Below, piece after piece: positions 10,380 through 25,111 of a stretch of 59,231 bases of DNA. Source of the DNA: an uncultured delta proteobacterium (GTDB lineage Bacteria; Desulfobacterota; Binatia; Bin18); NCBI GenBank assembly GCA_963733195.1, contig CAVTCR010000025.1, forward strand, positions 1-59,231, given 5' to 3'. The position numbers and the translations under genes were made by a program. The notes beneath the pieces are model-generated. The model was given only the letters and a program-made list of their open reading frames with translations. It searched no databases and was not told the DNA's origin. Position 1 is the first letter of the stretch. The number at the start of each line of letters is the position of its first letter.

Positions 10380-11711
10380 TTACTGCAGCACCGCCTTGGT
10401 TGCGGTTGTCGGAAAGTTGGTGAAGACTCCACCTTTGACCGGCGGTTCCCCACTTGGTCTCTGGGTGCGGGTAATAATAAAGACAACGTCACCACTTTGT
10501 ATGACAAGCGGCGTCACACAAACAGTTTCGTTCGGGTTAAAGGTAATCGTCTTGTTGAGATCCGGAAAGGCATCAACTACACGGTCAGCGATCCCACCTT
10601 CCGCCAGGTTGGCCAGTCCCAGGGTAGCAAGTTCTGTATACCAGTCTAAGTCTGCATTTGCTTGAACATTCTCTGTCGTGATGTGCAACTCTAGTGGGGT
10701 TTGGCCATCTGAGCACGCCCCAGCAAACCGTAAATCAAAGGAGAGATCCACTTCGGCATCGAAGCCTGGAACATCGGCACTGAGATCAACGGTCACATGG
10801 ACACGCTGGTCATCTTTTCCAGTTACTTCGACGTACCGGTCGCCATCAAGGTCGCCCCAATAGGCGTCTGTACCGTGGAGCGCGTCTCCGACAATCCCTT
10901 CAATCCGGCTTTCCAGCTCAGCGCGAGGAAGCCCAAGCGGCGGAGGTGGCTGTTGGAAACCTTGCCACAGAGGATGGGCGCGCAGCATCGACCGGGTAAC
11001 GGAATAGTGGTACAGATCACTCCCTCCCTGATCAAGCCAGCGGCAGGTTGATGCAGTCGAGCCAAACTGTTCGTTGTAGATTTCGCGGCCATTGATCAAG
11101 AGAGCAAAATCTTCGATACACCACCCATCGCTTCCAGGTTTGATGATATAGATCTCATTAATGTCACTAAGATCATTGAGACCATCGGTGAGAAGGTCAT
11201 AGGTGAATTCATTACCGCGCTCAAAGTCGTTGTGACTATAATTGAGGTAGGTCGCATGGTACGCCTTGAGGTAGACATGCACATCATCGTCTGTATTCGC
11301 GTCAGGGACATTGGCAGTGCGTAAGCGCAGCTGTACACGCCAGATACCACGCCCATCAATCGTGGCGAGGCTTTGCGGCACTGAGAACGATTCACCGTAA
11401 AAGTTATACGCCTCCACCCAGTAGTAGTACCGTGTATCTTGGGGCAATCCGGCGTCGGTATACTGCATGGTTCCAGTGTTACCCTTGATGGCCCCAAAAG
11501 CAGCAATCTGCGTCCATGGGCCATCATAGGCTGGCCCCCGATAGAGATTATAGCCTTGTTCATAGGAAGAATTGTCCTTCCAGTGCATCGTTATTGAGGT
11601 GTCAGTGCGTTCAACCAGATTTGGCTGCCCTGGGGTGCGCGGCTTGCTGTAGGGATCATCAGGTCCGAGGTCCGGTCCGCCACCCCCGCCACCTCCGCCT
11701 CCGATGAGCAC
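10380..11711 (-). CDS. Fibronectin type III + PLAT/LH2 domain protein, copy 1 (probably secreted; true 5' end disrupted, extends upstream)
   Basis: SITMHWKDNS..GY.LYR..YTDAGL..TRYYYWV (FN3); LRTANVPDANTDD..NDFERG..DGWCIE (PLAT); in-frame FTVATASVAFGAKP upstream resembles a signal peptide end. Confidence 0.85.
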   Translation of the reverse strand: MLIGGGGGGGGGPDLGPDDPYSKPRTPGQPNLVERTDTSITMHWKDNSSYEQGYNLYRGPAYDGPWTQIAAFGAIKGNTGTMQYTDAGLPQDTRYYYWVEAYNFYGESFSVPQSLATIDGRGIWRVQLRLRTANVPDANTDDDVHVYLKAYHATYLNYSHNDFERGNEFTYDLLTDGLNDLSDINEIYIIKPGSDGWCIEDFALLINGREIYNEQFGSTASTCRWLDQGGSDLYHYSVTRSMLRAHPLWQGFQQPPPPLGLPRAELESRIEGIVGDALHGTDAYWGDLDGDRYVEVTGKDDQRVHVTVDLSADVPGFDAEVDLSFDLRFAGACSDGQTPLELHITTENVQANADLDWYTELATLGLANLAEGGIADRVVDAFPDLNKTITFNPNETVCVTPLVIQSGDVVFIITRTQRPSGEPPVKGGVFTNFPTTATKAVLQ

Positions 11712-11822
11712 TCCCGTCTGGGAAACATTGCTATTGAGTAGCGGTTTTGCTCCAAATGCTACTGATGCTGTTGCTACAGTAAAGAAAAGGCGGAGTGGGC
11801 AAGTTTCTGTATAAAGCTATCG

Positions 11823-11897
11823 TTACGCTCGTTCGTTAGTGTTCGTGCAGGGTAAGCGGATTCTTACTCCCATTCGTGATTTTTCTGCTGTGTCCAT
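11823..11897 (-). CDS. Putative micro-ORF, RIRLPC family copy 1 (24 aa as read, may be frameshifted)
   Basis: GGGGAG RBS; MDTAEKSRMGVRIRLPCTNTNERA*; RIRLPC at residues 12-17 as in 19113-19241. Confidence 0.5.
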   Translation of the reverse strand: MDTAEKSRMGVRIRLPCTNTNERA

Positions 11898-11920
11898 TCT
11901 TCTCCCCGTCATCTTTTTCC

Positions 11921-11957
11921 CTTAAGGCGTGACATGGGTGTGCCACACGACGGCACA
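11921..11957 (-). promoter_or_regulatory. Conserved 37-bp operator/promoter motif, copy 1
   Basis: CTTAAGGCGTGACA-N4-TGTGCC-N7-GGCACA, fixed positions identical to 19270-19306. Confidence 0.75.
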
Positions 11958-12012
11958 GGCAAAAAAGAAATAGTGGAGAATGTAAACGTTGAAGGGAAAC
12001 CAGGGAGAAGCC

Positions 12013-12036
12013 AGGAGCGGCTCATGAACCGCTCCT
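12013..12036 (-). terminator. Hairpin downstream of beta-helix gene
   Basis: aggagcggctcatgaaccgctcct. Confidence 0.5.
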
Positions 12037-12051
12037 AAGACGAGAGTAAAA

Positions 12052-13898
12052 TCAGCGGCTCAGAGACGTACTCGTGAACACACCGCCAAGCGGAACATGG
12101 TTTACTGGAAATGGAAATCTTTGGGGCTTGCCTCCAGGGTAAATGATTCCGTCGGCTAACACATCACAGCGATTGTCACCATCAAAGTGACCCAGAGTCA
12201 CTTCGGCGCGACGCTTCGTCGAAGTATTCAGGAACACCCAGGGCCGATCGCCACCGCTGGAAAACCACCAAGTTGCGCCGGTCGCCATAAAGGTGTCGTT
12301 CAAGCCGTCACCGTCGAAATCACAGACACCCAGATCCGCACTGGCATCGACGCCAAGCACGTTGCCGGGTTCCGCATACGCCCCGATGTGTTCGGTCGCC
12401 ACCACGGCATCCTCCCAACTGTCATGGGCAAAGACGTTGGCGCCGATATACATCCCGTCCTCGGGTATGCCGCGCAGCTTGATCGCGTTCCCGGCGGTAT
12501 ACAGGAACGTGTTGTGGCGGATGTACATCGAATGCCCGGCGTCGCCGCAGTTCAAGTGCCCGGGAAAGCACGTCTCCGTCCCGTGTACATCGAACTGATG
12601 CGTGTAATGATCGTATATGAGGGGGCAATTCCCACTAGGCAGAGAGCCTTCGCAGGGGACCGGGCAGCCGGAGATAGAAGCACGACCCAAGTCCGGCAAG
12701 TCGCAGGCATTGTACGTGTCATGGTACCCACCGTTTTTGAGCACCAGGTTACGGTACGCCGCGTAGCCGGTTCCGAGGTCTCCGCCGCCTTTTATGGCAT
12801 GTCTGTTCCAATCGAACACGTTGCGCTCGATCAACGCGTAGGCCCCGACATTTATGGACACGCCGTACCCCTCTCTGCCCGCACGCTGGTTGTGGTGGAT
12901 GTAGTTATCGTGGATGCGCACCGCGGTAGGGTTCTCCGAGGGAAGCATCCGACCACCAGCGGGACACCACTCCTTCCCATCGCAGTCGTTCACGCGAACT
13001 GCCGCTTCACTCCAGCCATAGATCTCGTTGTAACCGATCTCGATGTTGACGAAACTATCAACCAGGATTCCGACCCCTTTGTTGGGCTCTTCATCTTCTG
13101 GCACTACCCTGGAGTGATCAGGCCCTTCGATACGTACACCGGTGATGCGCACGTTATCCCCGTTGATAGCAAACAACACATCCGGGCGAATTGTGGTGAA
13201 AAGCCGGGGGCCTGGCTGCCGGGGTGTCCGTCCACCCTCCAAAATGACTCCTCCTGCGACAGGAATAGATTCCCAACCGCTCAAATCCAACTCGACATGG
13301 TTCTCGATACGAATGTATTTATTTCCTTCTCTCAGCGCCTGTAAGAGCAGAGGCTCCATAAAGTTCGCATTGATGGAGATTATTGTCGGCGGCTCGGGCA
13401 GATCAACTTTGATGCTGGTGGTGGCCAGGGTGCGCCTCCCGCCTCCTAACACGGCGGGTAAGGTGGCGTGGAGCTTAGCACCGGTGTCGGCGATGGGTTG
13501 AATGGTGCGGCTGCCGGTGGCGGACACGACCTGGTTATCGACATACAGCTTGACCCCGACACCGGTACAGCTGCTGGGGACGATAACGTTCCAACGCAAT
13601 GTCCCGGTATCCTAAAGACGATGGGCTGGGGTGTGGCGGAGATACTGCCTTGTAAGTCGCCAAGACAGTCGAGCGCCTTCTCCTGCTGGGGAGGGGGGCT
13701 TGCCGGGAGTGCGCTGGCAGGCGAGGCTGGCAGCCCAAGGCTAAGCAGCATGAAGCTAACCATGCCGATGTTAACCAACTTGGCAAACTGACGAAGGTTA
13801 TTTCGGCCAGCTGCTTTCTTTACAGCCACTACAGGAAACGCCAAGGAGGCGGTCGCGGGGATTATTGTGGTTATGGTCTCATCAAGCTTCGTGCTCAC
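12052..13898 (-). CDS. Secreted right-handed beta-helix (pectin-lyase-like) protein with C-terminal FG-GAP/VCBS-like repeats; frameshift near 13600
   Basis: AAGGAG RBS, GTG start; NVRITGVRIEG, VRIHDNYIHHN, LIERNVFDWNRHAI; DFDGDGLND and HFDGDNRCD; ORFs 13446-13898 + 12052-13599. Confidence 0.82.
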
Positions 13899-14324
13899 AA
13901 ACTATCTCCTTCTTTCTGTTGTGATAACTCTTTGCAGTAGATGGCAAAAAGCAGGAAAACACTGCCTCGAAGTTTTGCGCTCGCTATCTGTTCGCTCACC
14001 ATGAGACAAAATCACTATGGAGGATACTGTTTGTTCGCAGGGTTGGGCGGCGCCAAGCTCGTGGGCCCGCACGAAGGCAGGGCTCCGCAACGTAGGCAGG
14101 TACGCGAGTACTTCCGCACGTAAGGGAAGCACTCGCAGTGATGCGTAGTTGAGCGCTGTGGACCTATCTCGGTGAGAATCAAAACCTTGCAATCTGAGTT
14201 TTTCAACGACCAATATCGTCGCTACGTCTACGCCTTTCTTCGAAGCAATCTCCAGAGAAAACACTTCTTGTTGCTGTCATCGTGGTCTCTTGCGGTTGCG
14301 GTACATGTGTTGAAATGCACCCGG

Positions 14325-15620
14325 TCACTGACAGGGCGCGGCAGCTCCGCCGCATGCGGCGATCACGGCAGTATCGGTCGCATTGCTCCAGGAGATCGGG
14401 ATGTACCCACGGTTCTTGTAGTTCAGAATGACTTGAAGGGACTCGTCTTCCTGCAGGCTTTGACCATGGATGAAGGCCACATACAGCTCTCGCGGAACGA
14501 CGTTGCGCACATCCGGAATCGATGTGGAGTCGTAGCCCAGTTTTTCGAGGTGCCTTTGAGCCGCAACAAACGGCATCCGCGTGATCGCATTCAGATTCCA
14601 CTTGGGCTTGTATGGAGATCCATCATGCGGGATGGCTTCGCCAACGAACCTGATCCGTCCCCGATAACTTCCGTGGGTAAACGTCGCGTTCGTCGCAAAC
14701 CAGAGCACCGACGGATCCGCACACGTGGGCCAGGTCGACGGACAACCTTTGGCGGAGGCATCGAGCCACACTTCATCCGCAACGGCCGTGGCCGGGGCTG
14801 GAACTGGCGTCGGGAACGGTGTCTTGCCAGCCCAGGGGTAGATATTCTGACGCGACACCGTCATCGACCACAGATCGAACGGGTCAGGGATCGTGTGCGG
14901 CGACGTGGTCGGGGGGTACGGCGGCTGTGGATACTGTCCAGAGAGCATACAGGGATCGTGAATCTTGTATCCCATGTAGACCCCAAGCTTTACCTCAGGA
15001 TGGACATTGAGCCAGTGTCGCAGATAGCCGCCCTGCAAGATCGTCCACATCGCACGATCCTTGGTGAGGAGGGGATTGGATGCCTTAGAAAGAGTCCAGT
15101 ATTGCGCTGAGGGTACCGAATCGCCCTCGTACATGCCAGCGGGACGATTGATGAGGATGCGTCGCCAACCATCGTCATAAAGATCGTCGAGGATCGACTC
15201 GAGCTTATCCCAGACGTCGGGACGTTTGTTGCGCCACTCGTGGTGATACTCCCGTGCAGGAACACCGCCGGGACAATGGTTATCGATCACCATGGGTACG
15301 CAGCCATCATCCTCGACATTCGCCGGATCAGAACACGGCGAGTTGGACCATGTGGTCTCGTCCACAGCCCATGCCGCGGCGCCGTAGGGATTGCAATCAT
15401 ACAGGTTACCACCTCCGAACAGGTTCACGACTCGGACAGGGCGAGTGTCGGGAACGAGGTCTGATGGCGGCAGGGTCGGCAGCGAGGTGAATACATGCGC
15501 AGAGCCGAGTGGCGTGCAAGCCGTCGGCGACACCGCCTGTGCAACGTTGTCGATCTGGGGATTGGACGAGTACGCCAATATCAACAACGCCAATAGCCAT
15601 TGCTTCTGATGCCAGATCAT
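14325..15620 (-). CDS. Secreted hypothetical protein (Cys/Pro-rich N-region, possible TIM-barrel-like core)
   Basis: GGAGG RBS, signal peptide MIWHQKQWLLALLILAY, 431-aa ORF; no family recognised. Confidence 0.7.
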   Translation of the reverse strand: MIWHQKQWLLALLILAYSSNPQIDNVAQAVSPTACTPLGSAHVFTSLPTLPPSDLVPDTRPVRVVNLFGGGNLYDCNPYGAAAWAVDETTWSNSPCSDPANVEDDGCVPMVIDNHCPGGVPAREYHHEWRNKRPDVWDKLESILDDLYDDGWRRILINRPAGMYEGDSVPSAQYWTLSKASNPLLTKDRAMWTILQGGYLRHWLNVHPEVKLGVYMGYKIHDPCMLSGQYPQPPYPPTTSPHTIPDPFDLWSMTVSRQNIYPWAGKTPFPTPVPAPATAVADEVWLDASAKGCPSTWPTCADPSVLWFATNATFTHGSYRGRIRFVGEAIPHDGSPYKPKWNLNAITRMPFVAAQRHLEKLGYDSTSIPDVRNVVPRELYVAFIHGQSLQEDESLQVILNYKNRGYIPISWSNATDTAVIAACGGAAAPCQ

Positions 15621-15959
15621 GAGTTCCTCCTTCAGGGGATGCGACTTTCGAATACCGCGAAAATCGGATCGCTGTTTTCATTAACTGACGACGAGTCCCA
15701 TGCTTCAAGCGTAGTAGGAGAGTTGTACAAAGTAACGACAACCCGACAGAGCGAACCATATGAGCCTGCGATAGCTTGCGATTTCATAGGTCAACCAAAG
15801 CCTTCTTCTTCCTCTCTATGCTGCCCAACACGTGCACCTCGCGCAGGTACTCGGCAATTCTTTGCGGTTTATCGTGCTGGTAGTCATGAGCACACGGGCT
15901 GGTATCCTCGGGGAGCCGTGTGCCTCACTCCTGTCTGAGCACGGGACCTGCGCAGCGTA

Positions 15960-17417
15960 TTACTGCAGCACCGCCTCGGTCGCGGTTTTCGGGAAGGTTG
16001 GTATCGACTCCACCTTTGACTGGCGGGTTTTCCGTTTGGCTTCTGGGTGCGGGTAACAGTAAAGACCACATCGCCACTCTGTATCACGACCGGCGTCACA
16101 CAAACGGTTTCGTCTGTGTTAATAGTGATCGTCTTGTCGAGGTCTGGAAAGGCGTCAACTACACGGTCAGCGATCCCGCCTTCTGCCAAGTTGGCCAGTC
16201 CTAGAGTAAGCAGTTCTGTGTACCAGTCCAAGTCTGCGCCGGCGCTGACGTTCTCCGTCGTAATGTGCAGTTCCAGCGGAGTTTGTCCATCTGAGCATGC
16301 CCCGGTAAACTTCAGATCAAAGGAGAGGTCTACTTCTGCATCCCACCCAGGCACATCAGCACTGAGATCGACAGTGACATGAACGCGCTGGTCATCTTTT
16401 CCTGTCACTTCGACGTAACGGTCGCCATCGAGGTCTCCCCAGTACGCGTCTGTGCCATGGAGCGCATCACCGACAATCCCTTCAATCCGGCTTTCCAGCT
16501 CAGCACGAGGAAGGCCCAATGGAGGAGGAGCCTGCTGGAAGCCTTGCCACAGAGGATGGGCGCGCAGCGTCGAGCGAGGTGATAAAATAGTGGTACAGAT
16601 TGTCCCCACCCTGATCAAGCCAGTGGCAGGTTGATGCAGTCGAGCCAAACTGTTCGTTGTAGATTTCGCGGCCATTGATCAAGAGAGCAAGATCTTCGAT
16701 ACACCACCCGTCGCTTCCAGGTTTGATGATATAGATCTCGTTAATGTCACTCAGATCACTGAGACCGTCGGTGAGCAGGTCATAGGTGAATTCATTACCG
16801 CGTTCAAAGTCGTTGTGACTGTAATTGAGGTAGGTCGCGTGAGGCTCCTTAAGATAGACATATACGTCGTCGTCCGTGTTCGCGTCGGGGACATTCGCAG
16901 TGCGTAAGCGAAGCTGCACGCGCCAGATATCACGGCCATCGATCGTGGCCATGGTTTGCGGCACAGAGAACGATTCACCGTAGAAGTTATACGCTCCTAC
17001 TCGGTAATAGTATCCGGTATCTCGGGGCAGGCCTGCGTCGGTATATTGCATGGTTGCAGTGTTACCGGGCGTAGCACCAAAGACAGCAATCGGCGTCCAT
17101 GGACCGTCGTAGCTAGGGCCTCGGTAGAGGTTATATCCTTGTTCGTAGGAAGAATTGTCCGTCCAGTGCATCGTTATTGAGGTGTCGGTACGTTGAACAA
17201 GATTTGGTTGGCCTGGGATGCGCGGTTTGCTGAAAGGATCATCAGGCCCGAGGTCCGGTCCGCCACCACCACCGCCGCCCGTGTATATCTCACCACTAGG
17301 TAGCGTCGTCCCCGGTATTCTCGCTCTGCCGAACGCCGCGGTCGTAGCCAGAGTAATTGCCAACGACGCGACGGCAAGAATCGTTGTGACTTTTGTCACA
17401 TACAGTTTCGTATTCAC
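15960..17417 (-). CDS. Secreted FN3 + PLAT/LH2 domain protein, copy 2; frameshifts near 16575 and 16030
   Basis: Closely similar to 10380-11711 along its length; AAGGAG RBS, GTG 17417, signal peptide MNTKLYVTKVTTILAVASLA; same ...AVLQ* ending. Confidence 0.85.
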
Positions 17418-17576
17418 AAAATGTCTCCTTCTTCCATTTGAATGTTGTAGGCAATGAAAACCCGAGTGAAAGGCTGGGGCGGGCGTAGCATCGAACATGT
17501 TTCACCCGCCCGTTTTTCCTTCTGGCTTAGTAGCACGTGACTAACCCCGAATCGCAGATATTCAGAGGACACATCG

Positions 17577-17846
17577 TCAGTCTGCCATCAAAGTAACAGG
17601 CCATCTCGATTGGGCCGGGGCTATGGCAAGAAGTAAATGAGGCAACTGCGTACCGGGTCCGTCTTCCTTGAGGGAGACACCGCCATTACAACCACGGTAC
17701 TCATAGCCCACCTCGTTGGTCATCGTCGCGTCGCTGAAGTACACAGTTTCCTTTTCATTGGCAGGGAGGGCAAACGACTGAACTGCAGTGATCCCGATTA
17801 GTGCCATAGCAATTCCGAACATCCGTAAATTTTTCGTGAGTTTCAT
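17577..17846 (-). CDS. Small secreted protein, DUF6289-like; C-terminus probably frameshifted
   Basis: Signal peptide; ETVYFSDATMTNEVGYEYRGCNG. Confidence 0.7.
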   Translation of the reverse strand: MKLTKNLRMFGIAMALIGITAVQSFALPANEKETVYFSDATMTNEVGYEYRGCNGGVSLKEDGPGTQLPHLLLAIAPAQSRWPVTLMAD

Positions 17847-17963
17847 GATCTTTCTCGCTTTCTTTGGTTATTCCCGACGCATTGCCGAAGCAGAGAGCCG
17901 GTACGTGGTTTCTTCTCGATTGATGAGCCACGGATAACTTACGAAACTCTTCGCACTGGAGGC

Positions 17964-19091
17964 TTACGGTCCGACTGGGCAGTACGTGTAGGTTACGTAG
18001 GTACTCTGAGAGACTTTCATCTGCATGCGGGAAGGAATGTACGACTTTCCCACGGACAGGTTTTTGGTGTTGACGCCATCGAGTGTTTGTTTCTGAGTGT
18101 CCCAGCCAAACCAGCCAACGCCGCGCCGCACTTTGATCTGTGCGCCGGCAGGCAGGCGAAAGAGGGCTCCGGCTTCGGCGTTCCACAACGTTTCGAGGGT
18201 ACGCCAACTTCCTGATTGCACGTACTTGCTCCGCTCAACGCACGCCCCACCAATAAACGTACTGTTTGTAACGCTACTCCCTCTCGTGTTCACGGGATCA
18301 AGTAAACCGGGCACAGGTAAGATCGTCACAAGCGAACTGTCAGCTCCAGAGAAGACCAAGACCTGGCCTTGGGATGAATCAACGATGGCAAGATCAGCAA
18401 CGCCATCCTTGTTGAGATCTCCCACCACCGCATCACCGGCAACACGCCCCATCTCTGGGAGAGTGGTCGTCAAGGGTCTTCGTTGCGGGTGTCCGCACTC
18501 TCCGCAGATTTCCAGCTTCGTACCATCCAGTCCCGAGAAGAACGAAAACTTTCCGTCAGCGGAGTCCTTTACTACAAGGTCAGCCACCGCATCGCCGTTG
18601 CGATCTTCGATTCCGGTAAACCACCGTCCAAAGAGTGATAAGGGATCCGGATTCTCGCTCTTCAAGGTCGCAAGCACGCCGTCCCCTGCGCCCGAAAGAA
18701 CGACAATCTGCCCATGGGCGGGATCTCCAACAGCGATATCGGCCACAGCATCAGCGTTGATGTCACCGAGCCCTACCAGAGGATGGTCAAGATCTGCTTC
18801 CTGTAGGTCGGCAGTGGCATGCGTCGCTTGGGGATGACAGTTGGCTCCGCTCTCATCACAGTAATAGACGTCACACCGGACTGTGCCGTTCTGTGGGTTG
18901 GTTTCGCATTTTTCACACCTCGTGGCCGGTTTGATGTTGGGAAGGCCACCCACCGGAGCACAGTTGAACCCATTGGTCTCAAGATCATTTTTGGATGCTG
19001 CCTGCACAGAAGCCGCCCACCCGAGAACGGCTATCAGAAGAAGAATCAGAAGATATATCCGTTTCATTTGTACAGTTTTTATGAGTTTCAT
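17964..19091 (-). CDS. Secreted protein with Cys-rich N-domain, FG-GAP (integrin-alpha-like) repeats and unknown C-domain
   Basis: Signal peptide; GDINADAVADIAVG, DRNGDAVADL, GDLNKDGVADL. Confidence 0.85.
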   Translation of the reverse strand: MKLIKTVQMKRIYLLILLLIAVLGWAASVQAASKNDLETNGFNCAPVGGLPNIKPATRCEKCETNPQNGTVRCDVYYCDESGANCHPQATHATADLQEADLDHPLVGLGDINADAVADIAVGDPAHGQIVVLSGAGDGVLATLKSENPDPLSLFGRWFTGIEDRNGDAVADLVVKDSADGKFSFFSGLDGTKLEICGECGHPQRRPLTTTLPEMGRVAGDAVVGDLNKDGVADLAIVDSSQGQVLVFSGADSSLVTILPVPGLLDPVNTRGSSVTNSTFIGGACVERSKYVQSGSWRTLETLWNAEAGALFRLPAGAQIKVRRGVGWFGWDTQKQTLDGVNTKNLSVGKSYIPSRMQMKVSQSTYVTYTYCPVGP

Positions 19092-19112
19092 GATTTTTCT
19101 CTTTTTCTGTCG

Positions 19113-19241
19113 TTACTCCCGGAGCGCTTCGTGAGTCGCTACCCGGTACAGAGTTTTTCTTTGCATCGAAGCGGGCTTTCCTGGACTCACGCACGGCAAT
19201 CGTATGCGGATTTTTACCAGTAGGGGTTTCATCGTGTTCAT
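19113..19241 (-). CDS. Putative micro-ORF, RIRLPC family copy 2 (42 aa)
   Basis: GAGG RBS; MNTMKPLLVKIRIRLPCVSPGKPASMQRKTLYRVATHEALRE*; lies between the 37-bp motif and the first secreted gene. Confidence 0.6.
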   Translation of the reverse strand: MNTMKPLLVKIRIRLPCVSPGKPASMQRKTLYRVATHEALRE

Positions 19242-19306: not shown

Positions 19307-19697
19307 GCAAAGATTGCGGACAGACGAATGTGGATTGCGGAATACTGAGAGCGAAGGGTTATCAATCCGCTTTCTATAATCGTCAATCAGCAATTGGAGA
19401 GAGGAAGGTTGAGGATTTGAAGAGACCGATACCAGAATCTTAGAAGTGTCAACTGTTGCACTTCATGTGTCGCCTTTTGATAAGCGAAGCTCATGGTTCC
19501 TGCCGTCCCATAAGGACTTTTCGTCCTTTATGTACCTGGCATTGCCTTTGCTCCTTGAAGACGCAAGGGATCGACGTATCTAGGGGTAACTCCACTCTTC
19601 GGGCGGAGTCAGACGAACAGCAAGAAAAAACTGCGGAGGTTTGAGTTGGGCTATGCTCATAGCAAAGCGTAATCAACAGCACCCTCATAGCAAAGGC

Positions 19698-22600
19698 ATG
19701 CATTCTTTCGGAGAGAGGCCATTTGTCGGGCGGACAAAAGAACTCGATCAGGCACTACAGATGCTCACAGGGGCACAGTCAGGGTACGGACACACTCTTG
19801 TAGTCAGCGGACCAGGCGGGATTGGCAAGACCCGCTTTGCTGAGGAGGTTGCAGCTCGTGCGCAGTCTCTCGGGGCAACGGTTGCCATCGGGCGTTGCTG
19901 GCGAGACGGTGAAGCACCGCCATTGTGGCCCTGGCGAAGGATTTTTCGCGAGCTTGACGCTCCTCCGAGTCTTCTTGCCGAACGACGATCAGATGCAAAC
20001 CACGAACGGTTCGCTTACTTCATAGCCGTGCTCGATTATTTTCGCGCCGCACCTCGTGGAACTTCGTACCTGCTCGTTCTTGATGACGTGCATTTGGCCG
20101 ACCCGACGACACTTCTGCTCGCTCGATTTCTCGCTCGTGAACGGCAAGGACTGCCCGTGCTGCTACTCCTAATCCGTCGAGACGACACCCCCAGTGCGTC
20201 TGCTGAAGTAACGGCATTGCTCGCAGAGCTGGATCACGACGCCACGCCACTTCACCTCGTAGGTTTAACCAACAGTGAGATCACTACCTATCTGTCCTCC
20301 TATGGCTGCTCTGATCTGAATGCAGAGCTTTTGTCTCTGGTCGGTGCAGTCACAAAGGGGAACCCGTTACATCTGCGGAGTGTTGTAGGACACAACCAGT
20401 TCGGCAATGACACGGTATTAGAAGGGTTAGAACAGGCAATCACACATACTATCGAGCAACTTCCGGACCTCGACCGCAAAGTCCTCGGAATGGCTGCTCT
20501 GTTAGGCGTAGAAGTTTCAATGTACGAGGTCGCCCGCCTCGTCGAGACCTCCCCCTGTGTGGTGACTACCTCGCTGAGGCGTGCAGTCAACCTCGGGCTC
20601 ATGGTCGAGCACTGTGGCGATCGGATGAGCTTTATCCACGAGCGTGTACGCGATGCCGCATTAGCAGCTCTCGCACTACAGGAGCGTCTCGCTGCACATG
20701 CACGGACTGCTCAGCTGTTGACGGGACGCACGCCCGACCGCGTGTTACGACGAGCACATCATGCCTTCATCGCTGCCAGCCGCTCTACTGAGGACGCCAT
20801 CGCCGCTGTGGAAATCGCCCGCGAGGCAGCAGCAGAACTGCAAGTGGCTGGAGGATTCGAGCAAGCTGCAACACTACTGAGTCGAGCGACCAAACTCCAA
20901 GATGCGGGAGCATTACCTGGACCCACTTCAGCCTTAGTGGTCGAGTGGGCCGAAGCCGTCCTCGCTTGCGGCCATCTGGCTGAGGCGCGTCCCCTCTTTC
21001 ACCGCGCAGCACATCTGGCAGAAACCGAGGGAGACTCAGCGATCCTTGCCCGCGCAGCTCTGGGCTTAGGCGGTGTATGGGTACGAGAACACCGCATGAG
21101 TGAGGAAGCTGAGCGCGTAGGAGCGTTACAACGCCGGGCACTTGCTGCGCTTCCACACGATGCTCACATCTTACGCGCGCGGCTCACGGTACGAATTGCC
21201 GCCGAAAACGCGTATCGCGGCGGCCCAGTAACAGAAGTCATAGAAGGGGTTGAAGCCGCGCGACGTACTGGCGATGCACGAACCCTCGCTGAGGCATTGT
21301 CACTGTGTCATCATGTGCTCTTCATTCCATCGCACATGAAGCCTCGACTCGCGGTCGCCAACGAACTTGTCTCGGTAGCGTCCGTGGCTGGTGACGGAAT
21401 GCTGGCACTGATCGGCCTGTGCTGGCGGGCAGCAGATTTGTTCTTGCTGGGAGATCCCTCTGCTCAATCTGCACTCGCGGAACTCCGCCTTCGCGCTGAT
21501 GCGTTGCGTTGTAGTAGCATTCTTTTTATCGTGCAAGCAATGGACGTGATGCTAGCAATCCGAGCTGGGAAGTTTGAACAAGCAGAGCAAGCCGCAGCAG
21601 CATGTTATGCACTTGGCACAGAAGTGGGCGATGCCGACGCGTTGTCGTACTATGGCGCGCATATGGCAGCCATTCGCGTGTTCCAGGGACGCGAGACGGA
21701 GATTGCTGATGTCGCGGCTTCAATCGCCACGTCCCCGATGCTCACCGAGCGAGATCGTGCCTTCTCATCAGCAGCAGCCTTGTTCGCGTTGCGTGGTGGA
21801 CAACCTCACCAAGCACGTGCCGTACTCGATGGGTTAACGCGTGAGGGCTTAGACAGCATCATTCCCTCCAGTTCCTGGTTGCTCACCATGCAGGCCATCA
21901 TTGAACTGGCAGCAGCACTCAACGACACGCACAATGCCCAGGCTGCCTATAACGCATTGTTGCCCTATGCCGAGCTGCCAATCATGGCATCACTCGCAGT
22001 CGTTTGCTTCGGATCGGTTTATCGTCCGTTAGCCATAGCCGCTTTGACCTGTGGAAAAATCGATCTCGCGATAGAACATTTTGTGGCTGCTGTCGCTGCA
22101 AACGAACGACTCGGGTCACCGACCAGCTGCCATCCAAGCGCGCGCGGAACTCGCATTCGCATTACTGCGGCGATCAGGGCCTGGGGATAATCAACGAGGG
22201 CGCCACCTTCTTAAAGAAGCGATGACAGAAGCTGACGAACTCGGGATGACTGGGCTGGTCCATCGATGGCAAGAGGCGCTCGCGAGCAGCACAGGAGACG
22301 ACCCGTTCATATTAATAGCAATTTTGTCAGCGTATCATCATCGCCACAAGGTGGATGGCGGATGGCGCTGGGGAATCAGATCGCCACTGTCCCAGATTTG
22401 GTCGGAATGCGTTATCTTGCCCAACTTGTTGCAGCACCGAACCAGGACGTTCCGGCCGTTGCGTTAGTCGTTGACCAGGGAACTTCGCCTCCAATGGCAG
22501 GAGAACAAGAAGTGATGGATGCGACGACAGTCGCCGCAGTACGGCAGCGCATCCGTACACTCAGAGAGCAATCCATGCTGATGCCGGAAGAGCAAGATGA

Positions 22601-22825
22601 GCTCGATACGCTCATTCATGAACTTGCCTGCGCAAGTGGCCTCGGGGGCCGCATTCGCTCTTTTGCTGACGCCCCGAGCGCGCCCGTACAGCAGTCAGAA
22701 AGGCCGTGAAACGTGCCATCGAGCAAGTCGCAGCCGCCAATCCCGTAGTTGGGCAGCATCTCGCCACGCGAATTGAGACTGGAGCGGTCTGCCGCTACCG
22801 CGTCGAAGACTACGAACGGAACTGA
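19698..22825 (+). CDS. AAA/STAND ATPase + helical (TPR-like) regulator with C-terminal ERARTAVRKA domain; frameshifts near 22130, 22310, 22680
   Basis: PFVGR, Walker A GPGGIGKT, Walker B VLDDVHLAD, TKGNPL; C-terminal DLVGMRYLAQLV...GLGGRIRSF...RARTAVRKAVKRAI...IETGAVCRY. Confidence 0.85.
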
Positions 22826-23725: not shown

Positions 23726-25111
23726 ATGCAACCTATGACACCGCTTGTTGAAGAACAAAGGCCGACCACCGCTCGCAAGATCGCCCCCGGACCGCGCTAC
23801 CGTACTCCCTTTGGCGCCCTCGCAGCCTTCCGACGTGATCCACTGAAATTTGAAATCGACCTTGCCAAGTTCGGTGGCGTTATCAGAACACAGATGGGTC
23901 CCTGGTTCTCACACTCGGTCTTTCATCCTGCGCACGTCAAATACGTCCTGCAAGACAATAACCAAAACTATGGACGCAGTGCCTTCGTCAAAATGCTCAA
24001 GTCTGCCGTCGGCGACGGGTTGCTCACCAATGAAGGCGAATCATGGCTGCGACAGCGTCGCCTCGCGCAACCCGCTTTTCATCGCCAGCGCATCGCAGCA
24101 CTCGTCACACTAATGACCGATTCCATCGACACCATGCTTGAACGTTGGCGTTCAGTTGCTGAGAACAGGCAACCCGTAGAGCTGCTCGCTGAGATGAGCA
24201 ACCTCGCACTCGACATTACCGGGAAAGCTTTATTCGGCACCGCGCTCAGTAGTGAGCTGAATGCGTTCCTTGATCAACAAAGACTGATACTCGCCCACTT
24301 TAACTATCGATTTGAGCATTTCCTCACTCTGCCGGAGAATATTCCCACGCCGCGCAACCGCCGTTTTCACAAGGCGGTGCAAACCATGGATGCGATCGCT
24401 TACAAAATCATCGCTGAACGTCGTCAGAACGGACACGACAGAGGAGACCTTTTGTCGATGTTGCTCATGGCCCGCGACGAGGAAACTGGCGAGGGCATGA
24501 ACGATAAGCAATTGCGCGATGAGGTCACCACCTTTCTCGGCGCTGGGAGCGAGACTACTGCCGTACTTCTTGCTTGGGCGTGGACGCTACTCTCGCTACA
24601 TCCCACGGTAGAGCGGAAATTTCGTGCAGAATTAGCGGAGGTCCTCGGTGGTCGTACAGCGACGATCGCTGATCTGCCCAATCTCAAATACACGCGTATG
24701 ATCCTTGATGAAACGTTACGGCTGTACCCACCAGCGTGGGCCATGTCACGCGAAGTGCTGAGTGACGATGAAATCGGCGGGTATCACATTCCAGCGAAAT
24801 CCCAAATTTTCCTGGTCCAATACGTCACCCATCGACTCCCAGAATTTTGGGAGAACCCAGAGGGATTCGACCCAGAACGCTTCACTCCTGAACGTTCAGC
24901 GAACCGCCCACGGTACGCGTATTTTCCTTTTGGCGGCGGCCCGCGTTTATGTATCGGCAACGAGTTCGCTTTGATGGAAGCACAACTCGTGTTGGCAACA
25001 GTCGCGCAGAAGTATCGCCTACACGTAGCCCCGGGTCACAAAATAGAGCCACACCCCATTTTTACTCTGCGTCCACGATATGGAGCGATGGTAACTCTGC
25101 ATCAGACTTGA
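23726..25111 (+). CDS. Cytochrome P450
   Basis: AGSETT I-helix, ETLR (ExxR), FDPERF, FGGGPRLCIG heme motif. Confidence 0.97.
   Translation: MQPMTPLVEEQRPTTARKIAPGPRYRTPFGALAAFRRDPLKFEIDLAKFGGVIRTQMGPWFSHSVFHPAHVKYVLQDNNQNYGRSAFVKMLKSAVGDGLLTNEGESWLRQRRLAQPAFHRQRIAALVTLMTDSIDTMLERWRSVAENRQPVELLAEMSNLALDITGKALFGTALSSELNAFLDQQRLILAHFNYRFEHFLTLPENIPTPRNRRFHKAVQTMDAIAYKIIAERRQNGHDRGDLLSMLLMARDEETGEGMNDKQLRDEVTTFLGAGSETTAVLLAWAWTLLSLHPTVERKFRAELAEVLGGRTATIADLPNLKYTRMILDETLRLYPPAWAMSREVLSDDEIGGYHIPAKSQIFLVQYVTHRLPEFWENPEGFDPERFTPERSANRPRYAYFPFGGGPRLCIGNEFALMEAQLVLATVAQKYRLHVAPGHKIEPHPIFTLRPRYGAMVTLHQT

Follow-up and report, generated by a model that had tools for sequence, protein, structure and literature searches.

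Leader peptides of the Erm type sense macrolides and carry a +x+ (Arg/Lys-x-Arg/Lys) arrest motif, and a ribosome stalled near the 5' end stabilises the erm mRNA. Secreted signalling propeptides of the Phr/PapR type combine an N-terminal export signal with a conserved C-terminal mature peptide. SpeFL, the ornithine-sensing leader of speF, has a Rho-dependent output (bioRxiv 10.1101/604074). A study of RAPP-like arrest cores places their Pro in the P site and their last residue in the A site, describes the Arg as irreplaceable, gives the middle residue as only Ala or Gly, partly Ser, Asp or Pro, and reports that RxPP motifs with x = G, A, S or P induce arrest (PMC12992588). In A-site scans of ApcA and ApdP, Cys is the second-best arrest-supporting residue after Pro (PMC7897499). 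Here, we describe a family of micro-open reading frames (micro-ORFs), two of which are found in a 59,231-nucleotide stretch of DNA from an uncultured delta proteobacterium of the class Binatia (contig CAVTCR010000025.1 of assembly GCA_963733195.1, positions 1 to 59,231, hereafter called the window). As a kind, it would fall among the known regulatory leader or arrest-type micro-ORFs. Judging from their sequences and genetic environments, these micro-ORFs probably tune the expression of the secreted proteins encoded behind them.

A preliminary description of the window had proposed that a conserved micro-ORF directly follows each of two operator copies. Both micro-ORFs were confirmed, on the minus strand, with the following coordinates.

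11921 to 11957, minus strand: copy 1 of the putative 37-bp promoter/operator motif, TGTGCC-N7-GGCACA-N4-YGTCACGCCTTAAG
11823 to 11897, minus strand: micro-ORF 1, with its ATG at 11897 and its TAA stop at 11823-11825, 24 codons, product MDTAEKSRMGVRIRLPCTNTNERA
11847 to 11867, minus strand: conserved core of micro-ORF 1, V11 to C17
19270 to 19306, minus strand: copy 2 of the putative motif, with the same TGTGCC-N7-GGCACA-N4-YGTCACGCCTTAAG pattern
19113 to 19241, minus strand: micro-ORF 2, with its ATG at 19241 and its TAA stop at 19113-19115, 42 codons
19191 to 19211, minus strand: conserved core of micro-ORF 2, I11 to C17

The motif is separated from the ATG by 23 nucleotides (nt) in copy 1 and 28 nt in copy 2, and both start codons are preceded by purine-rich runs that resemble Shine-Dalgarno (SD) sequences (GGGGAG and GAGG). 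A search with the 24-nt core of the motif returned two matches in the window versus none in 100 shuffles. Residues 11-17 read [VI]RIRLPC in both peptides, RIRLPC corresponding to residues 12-17. The earlier observation that five of these six codons differ synonymously between the copies also held: AGA ATC CGC TTA CCC TGC in copy 1 versus CGC ATA CGA TTG CCG TGC in copy 2, with every change synonymous.

The two micro-ORFs belong to a family of 19 distinct, start-anchored members with the core [IVL]-R-I-R-[LSWF]-P-C, distributed over five genera of one taxonomic family and metagenome contigs. We searched the 56 genomes of the order for the motif, allowing up to 3 mismatches, and collected 14 sites in seven genomes that span 4 of the 11 genera. 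Eight of these sites are followed by a start-anchored ORF in which [IVLQ]-x-I-R-[LSW]-P-C begins 10-11 residues after the Met, and three others by degenerate versions of it. Of the four motif sites in the genome of the window, two fall in the window itself and two on contig C30; a micro-ORF accompanies three of the four. A scan of metagenome contigs yielded 52 motif loci, 14 of them with the core, which added seven new distinct micro-ORFs. A profile built from 12 micro-ORF peptides (A1) has invariant M1, P16 and C17 residues and at least 90% conservation of I13 and R14. Used to search the order, it recovered the eight known copies and pointed to five further places in genus g5, four of which are start-anchored micro-ORFs (...RRIRFPC, ...QRIRFPC and two ...NIRIRSPC). 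The fifth (G018:C163) lies inside an apparent coding sequence and was left out of the count.

The bare hexapeptide is common, with 11 six-frame matches to a loose regular expression in the 6.9-Mb genome. The significance of the micro-ORF thus comes not from the rarity of that string but from its being anchored to a start codon, placed behind the motif and a member of a family. One might still suppose that the core arises by chance, as such patterns do several times per genome, or that a nucleotide-level element, be it a DNA site or an RNA pairing partner, happens to read as RIRLPC. However, a profile built solely from nine copies of relatives, with none from this genome, ranked the three copies of the genome first to third. 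Their scores were 32.7, 24.9 and 22.3 bits, whereas the best of the other six-frame fragments, out of a total of 227,051, scored 16.3. The Arg codons alternate between AGA and CGN and the Leu codons between UUR and CUA, and there are Ser and Trp variants, so that no pairing partner would be kept, and Rfam gave no match. Chance or a nucleotide-level element is therefore extremely improbable.

With a profile holding all copies, no fourth copy was found in the 6.9-Mb genome. In a class sample of 151 genomes, matches at E <= 0.001 were restricted to the genus of the window, bar one of 22 bits in another family of the class (L152:1441-1620, minus strand, genome G557). This ORF, ...RIRIRMPC..., starts with TTG 97 nt before a signal-peptide gene, a spacing like that of the family, but has neither the motif nor a clear SD sequence; this marginal match is probably due to chance. 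The motif itself was found only in the window's genome among 401 genomes sampled from the phylum. A protein database search with A1 gave 95 word-sharing candidates, none at E <= 10, and an Rfam search of eight loci at E <= 1 had no match at the leaders. The core strings RIRLPC, IRIRLPC, RIRSPC and RIRWPC were not found in a literature search, and a search on DUF6289, Binatia and leader peptides returned no relevant paper among those listed. Contigs of the leader-bearing genomes carry names such as 'Candidatus Binatia bacterium' or 'Deltaproteobacteria bacterium'.

We observed a long-leader subtype in L093, L111, L136, L115 and L123 from metagenomes, in which a short ORF, M-x-N-F-F-S-D-[FL]-x-H-P-L..., lies ahead of the RIRLPC micro-ORF. 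The latter then begins with a GTG that overlaps the stop of the first ORF (GTGA), and a pyrimidine run in the first ORF is complementary to the purine-rich SD sequence of the main gene.

The codon pattern of the family shows that selection acts on the peptide, as had been suspected from the two window copies. Among the 105 pairs formed by 15 aligned copies, 0-14 differ at the first or second base of the codons for I, R, P and C, whereas 54-72 differ at the third base. All 19 copies have the Pro and Cys residues, and 18 have an Arg two residues before the Pro. The residue between Arg and Pro is Leu in nine copies, Ser in five, Phe in three and Trp in two. Arg is specified by AGA, CGC, CGA, CGG and CGU, Leu by UUA, UUG and CUA, Pro by three codons and Cys by two. 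Between copy 2 and its counterpart L003 from the same genus, there are three codon differences in RIRLPC, all synonymous, and the sequences are unrelated after the Cys. Conservation ends at Cys17 in the whole family: the tails, 7-39 residues long, are mutually unrelated, and the stop codons are found before the AAACT box, in a hairpin arm, at the GTAAC box (see below), across the main ATG as ATGA (L008, L097 and L144/L145) or inside the main ORF. The core is preceded by 10-19 polar or basic residues with no hydrophobic stretch. A lipobox or a signal peptide was considered for the micro-ORF and is a poor fit.

The unit-A micro-ORFs (defined below) of two other genera, L083:9056-9214 (minus strand) and L087:9344-9436 (plus strand), have lost RIRxPC and share GRSPPL, with four synonymous differences in its six codons, a count that comes from two sequences only. 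They may represent a second, related type of leader peptide.

The same data bear on the idea of a generic upstream ORF, in which only the act of translation would matter, for coupling or for protection from Rho, the shared sequence being inherited from a promoter cassette that was duplicated. Promoter, micro-ORF and hairpin module together indeed look like a cassette set before different genes, and the Cys codon lies 96-108 nt ahead of the main start in 13 of the 15 copies. However, descent alone cannot explain a pattern in which the codons for I, R, P and C are fixed in their first two bases while third positions are saturated, and the flanks of copy 2 and L003 have fully diverged within one genus. 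We regard this explanation as quite unlikely.

The micro-ORFs occupy a promoter-proximal position. The 37-bp motif is a predicted promoter/operator. We searched a species-representative genome collection for its core, TGTGCC-N7-GGCAC-N5-YGTCACGC, and collected 62 loci, mostly from Acidimicrobiales and other Actinomycetota, in which it precedes many kinds of genes. In seven of the 62 (L023, L042, L044, L050, L059, L067 and L074), long ORFs start 9-10 nt after YGTCACGC; as judged by reading, three of their products are flavin monooxygenase-like, two lipoprotein-like and two response regulators. Genes with so short a spacing look leaderless. This spacing points to a transcription start approximately 10 nt after YGTCACGC. 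The ATG of the C30 micro-ORF is exactly 10 nt after YGTCACGC, which fits a leaderless start, and the other copies would have predicted 5' untranslated regions of roughly 20-35 nt. A sigma-54 promoter was rejected, given that the GC at -12 is absent and that the motif is also found in Actinomycetota, which are not known to have sigma-54. A Sigma70_r2 gene lies behind the motif in the actinomycetotal locus L041, but neither the other loci nor this genome has a homologue of it, and an extracytoplasmic function sigma factor was discarded as a general explanation of the motif. A sigma-70 promoter scan of both leaders gave no hit. TCCGCAAT-like repeated words are present at 19307-19345 (minus strand), just upstream of motif copy 2, and also upstream of the motif of L003; they may constitute a further binding site.

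A regulator gene is divergent from unit 2.

19641 to 22709, plus strand: divergent STAND-like regulator with an AAA_16 N-terminus and a helical/TPR body

Its 3' part is split over three frames (19641-22190, 22081-22467 and 22266-22709), whereas the regulator is a single ORF of 836-1056 residues in five related loci; the breaks may be two frameshifts, real decay or assembly errors. Four of these five relatives are devoid of the N-terminal AAA_16 part, which the window protein and that of L084 possess. Beyond AAA_16 and TPR, no curated family or solved structure matched the regulator. Homologues 37-45% identical to it adjoin the core motif in 12 loci from other phyla. Motif and regulator homologues occur together in Acidimicrobiales, other Actinomycetota and single Acidobacteriota records (L021-L082, e.g. 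L022, L034, L046, L050 and L075), and a beta-helix homologue is found behind the motif in one Vicinamibacterales record. None of the core-motif loci from other phyla has the micro-ORF. This co-occurrence across phyla indicates that motif and regulator travel together, in support of the initial proposal that the motif is an operator tied to the STAND-like regulator. The pairing suggests an old or horizontally shared type of regulon, with a putative DNA-binding component.

Some micro-ORFs are placed behind other promoters. In G018:C75 and G022:C574 (L144 and L145), the promoter is unrelated, with TTGCAGAAAAA direct repeats and no 37-bp motif; the micro-ORF stop overlaps the start (ATGA) of the gene of a secreted astacin/FG-GAP protease, next to which a Trans_reg_C+AAA_16 gene runs divergently. 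A variant motif precedes the micro-ORF in L143 and L146; the one of G018:C314 contains GTCAC repeats and is followed by the micro-ORF and by DUF6289 and PLAT genes. The products encoded behind these micro-ORFs again begin with signal-peptide-like N-termini. There are thus three promoter types in all.

The preliminary description saw in the micro-ORF a possible ligand or feedback regulator of the STAND sensor. In such a scheme, a small peptide would act in trans: the whole product, or its first 17 residues, would recognise the helical/TPR sensor of the regulator or some other target and thereby exert feedback on the promoter. A STAND-type regulator gene adjoins the micro-ORF in most loci, including all five larger canonical ones, a different gene for a protein with winged helix-turn-helix and AAA_16 domains sits beside the G018:C75 copy, and a linear binding motif would likewise show a short conserved core between variable flanks. 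However, a single gene would suffice for a diffusible ligand, yet each transcription unit has its own copy. Moreover, neither tail length nor stop position is constrained, the motif and regulator of Actinomycetota come without a micro-ORF, and G018:C314 has no STAND gene within ~6 kb upstream. The regulators beside different copies (G018 and G022) are only distant paralogues, 30-32% identical. A complex prediction of the regulator (A2) with the peptide (A1) gave no verdict, with a score of 0.00 in two runs that had no controls, and weighs neither way. We consider a trans-acting peptide unlikely. Its more specific form, in which the 17-residue peptide would be an intracellular signal made from each regulator-activated transcript and would bind the STAND helical/TPR sensor in a feedback loop, is distinctly doubtful.

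We then looked at the genes behind the micro-ORFs, which in the window belong to the following set.

10380 to 11711, minus strand: fn3+PLAT gene (Pfam) behind micro-ORF 1, whose 5' end looks rearranged
12052 to 13599, minus strand: beta-helix/FG-GAP protein (Pfam)
16500 to 17498, minus strand: fn3+PLAT protein (Pfam)
17964 to 19091, minus strand: FG-GAP repeat protein, first main gene of unit 2, with its ATG at 19091 and a signal-peptide-like N-terminus

Two cluster units are conserved, unit A consisting of the motif, the micro-ORF and an FG-GAP protein, and unit B of the motif, the micro-ORF, a DUF6289 protein and an fn3/PLAT protein; both are found with a beta-helix protein and the regulator. 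On C30, a 108-residue protein with weak TPR matches comes after the micro-ORF. Altogether, the downstream products comprise FG-GAP, DUF6289, fn3/PLAT, astacin and small TPR-like proteins. The proteins encoded directly behind the micro-ORFs have N-termini that, read by eye, show basic and then hydrophobic residues followed by an Ala-rich site resembling a cleavage site; only the rearranged gene behind copy 1 departs from this.

Copy 2 is intact, with motif, micro-ORF, module and gene all present. Copy 1 retains the consensus peptide, but its homology to the metagenome locus L125 stops inside the hairpin arm and is followed by complete divergence. In the fn3/PLAT ORF at 10380-11711, only the distal half of the signal peptide is in frame, and the hairpin/GTAACC module is missing. 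The break of the copy 1 leader relative to L125 and the half signal peptide downstream delimit a region (11700-11830, minus strand) that suggests a recombination or deletion joint. The fn3+PLAT gene is duplicated in the window (15884-17498 and 10380-11711, both on the minus strand), and the two proteins are 86-90% identical. Two overlapping ORFs, 16500-17498 and 15884-16675, make up the inner copy; this split and the broken copy 1 gene may be assembly errors or reflect real decay.

These gene contents are relevant to another explanation, according to which the micro-ORF encodes an independent small protein or a precursor akin to those of ribosomally synthesized and post-translationally modified peptides (RiPPs), in which the N-terminal leader is conserved and the variable core undergoes modification or export by the products of neighbouring genes. 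A conserved N-terminus followed by a hypervariable C-terminus does resemble RiPP precursors, some tails are Cys-rich (L012), and there is a P450 gene at 23726-25111. However, the neighbours common to the loci are FG-GAP, DUF6289, fn3/PLAT and beta-helix genes, with no shared modifying enzyme; the P450 gene has a sole match, distant and 26% identical, in L088. In addition, some tails are as short as seven residues or run into the next gene in another frame. A RiPP-like precursor is thus very unlikely.

Between the micro-ORF core and the main start, the leaders display an AAACT box, a hairpin, a (C/A)GTAACCA box, a purine-rich SD sequence and the start codon. Two such regions were delineated in the window.

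19119 to 19146, minus strand: covarying leader hairpin of unit 2, between the AAACT and GTAAC boxes, then the SD sequence and the ATG at 19091
17817 to 17931, minus strand: second hairpin/GTAACC/SD module, before the internal DUF6289 gene (ATG at 17846), with no motif and no micro-ORF

The stop of copy 2 is the TAA within the GTAAC box. All eight pairs of the hairpin have compensatory changes, and 86.5% of its cells are paired; shuffles gave 73.3%, with none of 500 attaining the real figure, and sliding the partner gave 30-45%. A covariance model of the module found exactly two copies in the genome, the copy 2 leader and, as an independent match, 17817-17931. The covarying hairpin thus exists in the leaders but also without a micro-ORF. 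Because the second module lacks both motif and micro-ORF, the hairpin module belongs to the genes and the micro-ORF to the promoter-proximal position. Taken as a structured leader element (A3; 19062-19176 and 17817-17931 in the window, both on the minus strand, and 12 related loci), the module often has a UCAG loop, precedes FG-GAP and DUF6289 genes whose products start with MKLTKTVRM-like sequences and has no Rfam match.

An LYR motif reported after the core in both copies did not prove to be a conserved feature of the peptide. In copy 2, LYR arises from translating the nucleotide box GAAACTCTGTACCGG, which in L115 and L128 likewise yields ETLY(R). In copy 1, LYR is located upstream of this box; the two are therefore not homologous, and that of copy 1 is a coincidence. 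The 'EGDIL*' ends of upstream ORFs were likewise discarded, as they result from translation of AAGGAGAYATTTTGTGAAC, an SD-spacer-GTG element. The GTAACC box was also considered as a pairing partner of the RIRLPC codons and rejected, since the Ser and Trp variants break such pairing.

On balance, we give roughly even chances to the micro-ORFs being a family of cis-acting leader peptides that pause the ribosome at R-x-P/Cys. The leader-peptide proposal of the preliminary description is strengthened by the codon pattern of the 15 aligned copies, by the position of the micro-ORF as first cistron behind the promoter and by the presence of its own copy in each transcription unit. A cis-acting leader is the best fit because, in addition, the first 17 codons alone are constrained, the stop is free, and the micro-ORF accompanies three promoter types and always precedes genes for exported proteins. 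Translation of the micro-ORF, the pause, its site and its output are what we infer from these features, as follows. The 37-bp motif would be an activator-dependent promoter with its start site a few bases behind it, and the micro-ORF would thus be translated first on the mRNA. The nascent basic stretch ending with R-I-R-x-P would slow or arrest the ribosome with Pro16 in the P site and Cys17 in the A site. This pause site is proposed because the core recalls RAPP, RAPG and RAGP and because Cys ranks second in the A-site scans mentioned above; the RSPP of the two GRSPPL variants, an RxPP motif, adds side evidence from two sequences only. The whole peptide would still be within the exit tunnel at that point. 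A ribosome paused near the 5' end may then set the expression of the transcript, through protection of the 5' end or obstruction of Rho. Alternatively, terminating and reinitiating ribosomes could be gated at those micro-ORFs whose stop overlaps or adjoins the main start.

Several observations weigh against a cis-acting pause. We folded 15 leaders and modelled a ribosome footprint at the Cys codon: the accessibility of the main SD sequence was unchanged in 14 of them and rose in L099 only, so that there is no sign of erm-type unmasking. A terminator scan of both window leaders found no terminator-like site. In 14 of the 19 copies, R-x-P has Leu, Trp or Phe as its x, and non-small residues at that place abolished arrest in ApdA and ApdP (PMC12992588). 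The constraint on the peptide is not universal either. L125, a close relative of copy 1 with ~88% nucleotide identity by eye from motif to hairpin arm, reads RTCFPC though its leader and gene are intact, and its micro-ORF has ~10 non-synonymous and 2 synonymous differences from copy 1, as counted from the alignment. L123 has an in-frame TAA at codon 4. Some motif-driven leaders hold other short ORFs or none; thus, among the motif sites of the order, L014 and L015 have no comparable ORF, and L011 is truncated at the end of its contig.

If a pause does occur, R-x-P-Cys, bulky in its middle residue, would widen the range of RAPP/RAGP arrest cores known so far and provide researchers on arrest peptides with a new natural sequence class. 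Such a core would act without the peptide ever leaving the tunnel and would be encoded at the start of operons for secreted proteins, in uncultured bacteria that have hardly been studied. Should the micro-ORF not encode an arrest peptide, it would still be a conserved small gene unreported by the gene callers and database records examined. For genome annotation, the gain is an unannotated first cistron, a promoter motif common to Actinomycetota and a structured leader RNA. If, instead, the feedback explanation were true, the system would be a peptide-ligand STAND circuit in which the gene of the ligand is the operon leader itself.

How, then, does this family compare with described systems? 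It differs from signalling propeptides of the Phr/PapR type in that conservation is N-proximal, the tails are variable and there is no hydrophobic segment. As in attenuators of the trpL and hisL type, a short ORF lies between the promoter and the first structural gene, but it has no tandem regulatory codons, and there is no terminator hairpin with a U tract or biosynthetic operon. Like Erm leaders, the micro-ORF has a +x+ triplet, R-I-R, in a short leader ORF. Unlike in Erm leaders, L-P-C is conserved past the triplet and no resistance genes are found downstream, and folding of the 15 leaders revealed no alternative RNA pairing with the main SD sequence.

The resemblance to RAPP-like peptides (RAPG of ApcA, RAPP of ApdA and ApdP and RAGP of SecM) lies in three features: an Arg placed two residues ahead of a Pro, one further conserved position behind that Pro, and no conservation past it. 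In addition, two variant micro-ORFs carry RSPP, which is an RxPP motif (PMC12992588). A core of the form R-(A/G)-P-(P/G) is absent: the R-x-P spacing is found in 18 of 19 copies, but the next residue, that of the A site, is Cys in all 19 rather than Pro or Gly, and the middle residue is Leu, Trp or Phe, or Ser in 5 of 19. Since bulky middle residues abolished arrest in ApdA and ApdP, the micro-ORF is not of the RAPP type by its defining features. It also has no signal or transmembrane segment, approximately 17 residues would be made at the proposed pause, and the downstream genes code for secreted proteins, not for the Sec/YidC machinery.

With SpeFL, TnaC and Erm leaders, the family shares a short, peptide-conserved ORF in the 5' leader of an operon. 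It has no sequence homology with SpeFL or TnaC, which stall at the stop codon and need a conserved C-terminal effector part, whereas the tail and stop of the micro-ORF vary. Nevertheless, SpeFL (bioRxiv 10.1101/604074) is likewise encoded by a short ORF heading an operon, remains wholly in the tunnel, precedes an mRNA hairpin and has a basic motif, HIRRXXH, at residues 10-16, as compared with [IV]RIRxPC at residues 11-17. By analogy, SpeFL would be the closest functional counterpart of the micro-ORF described here.

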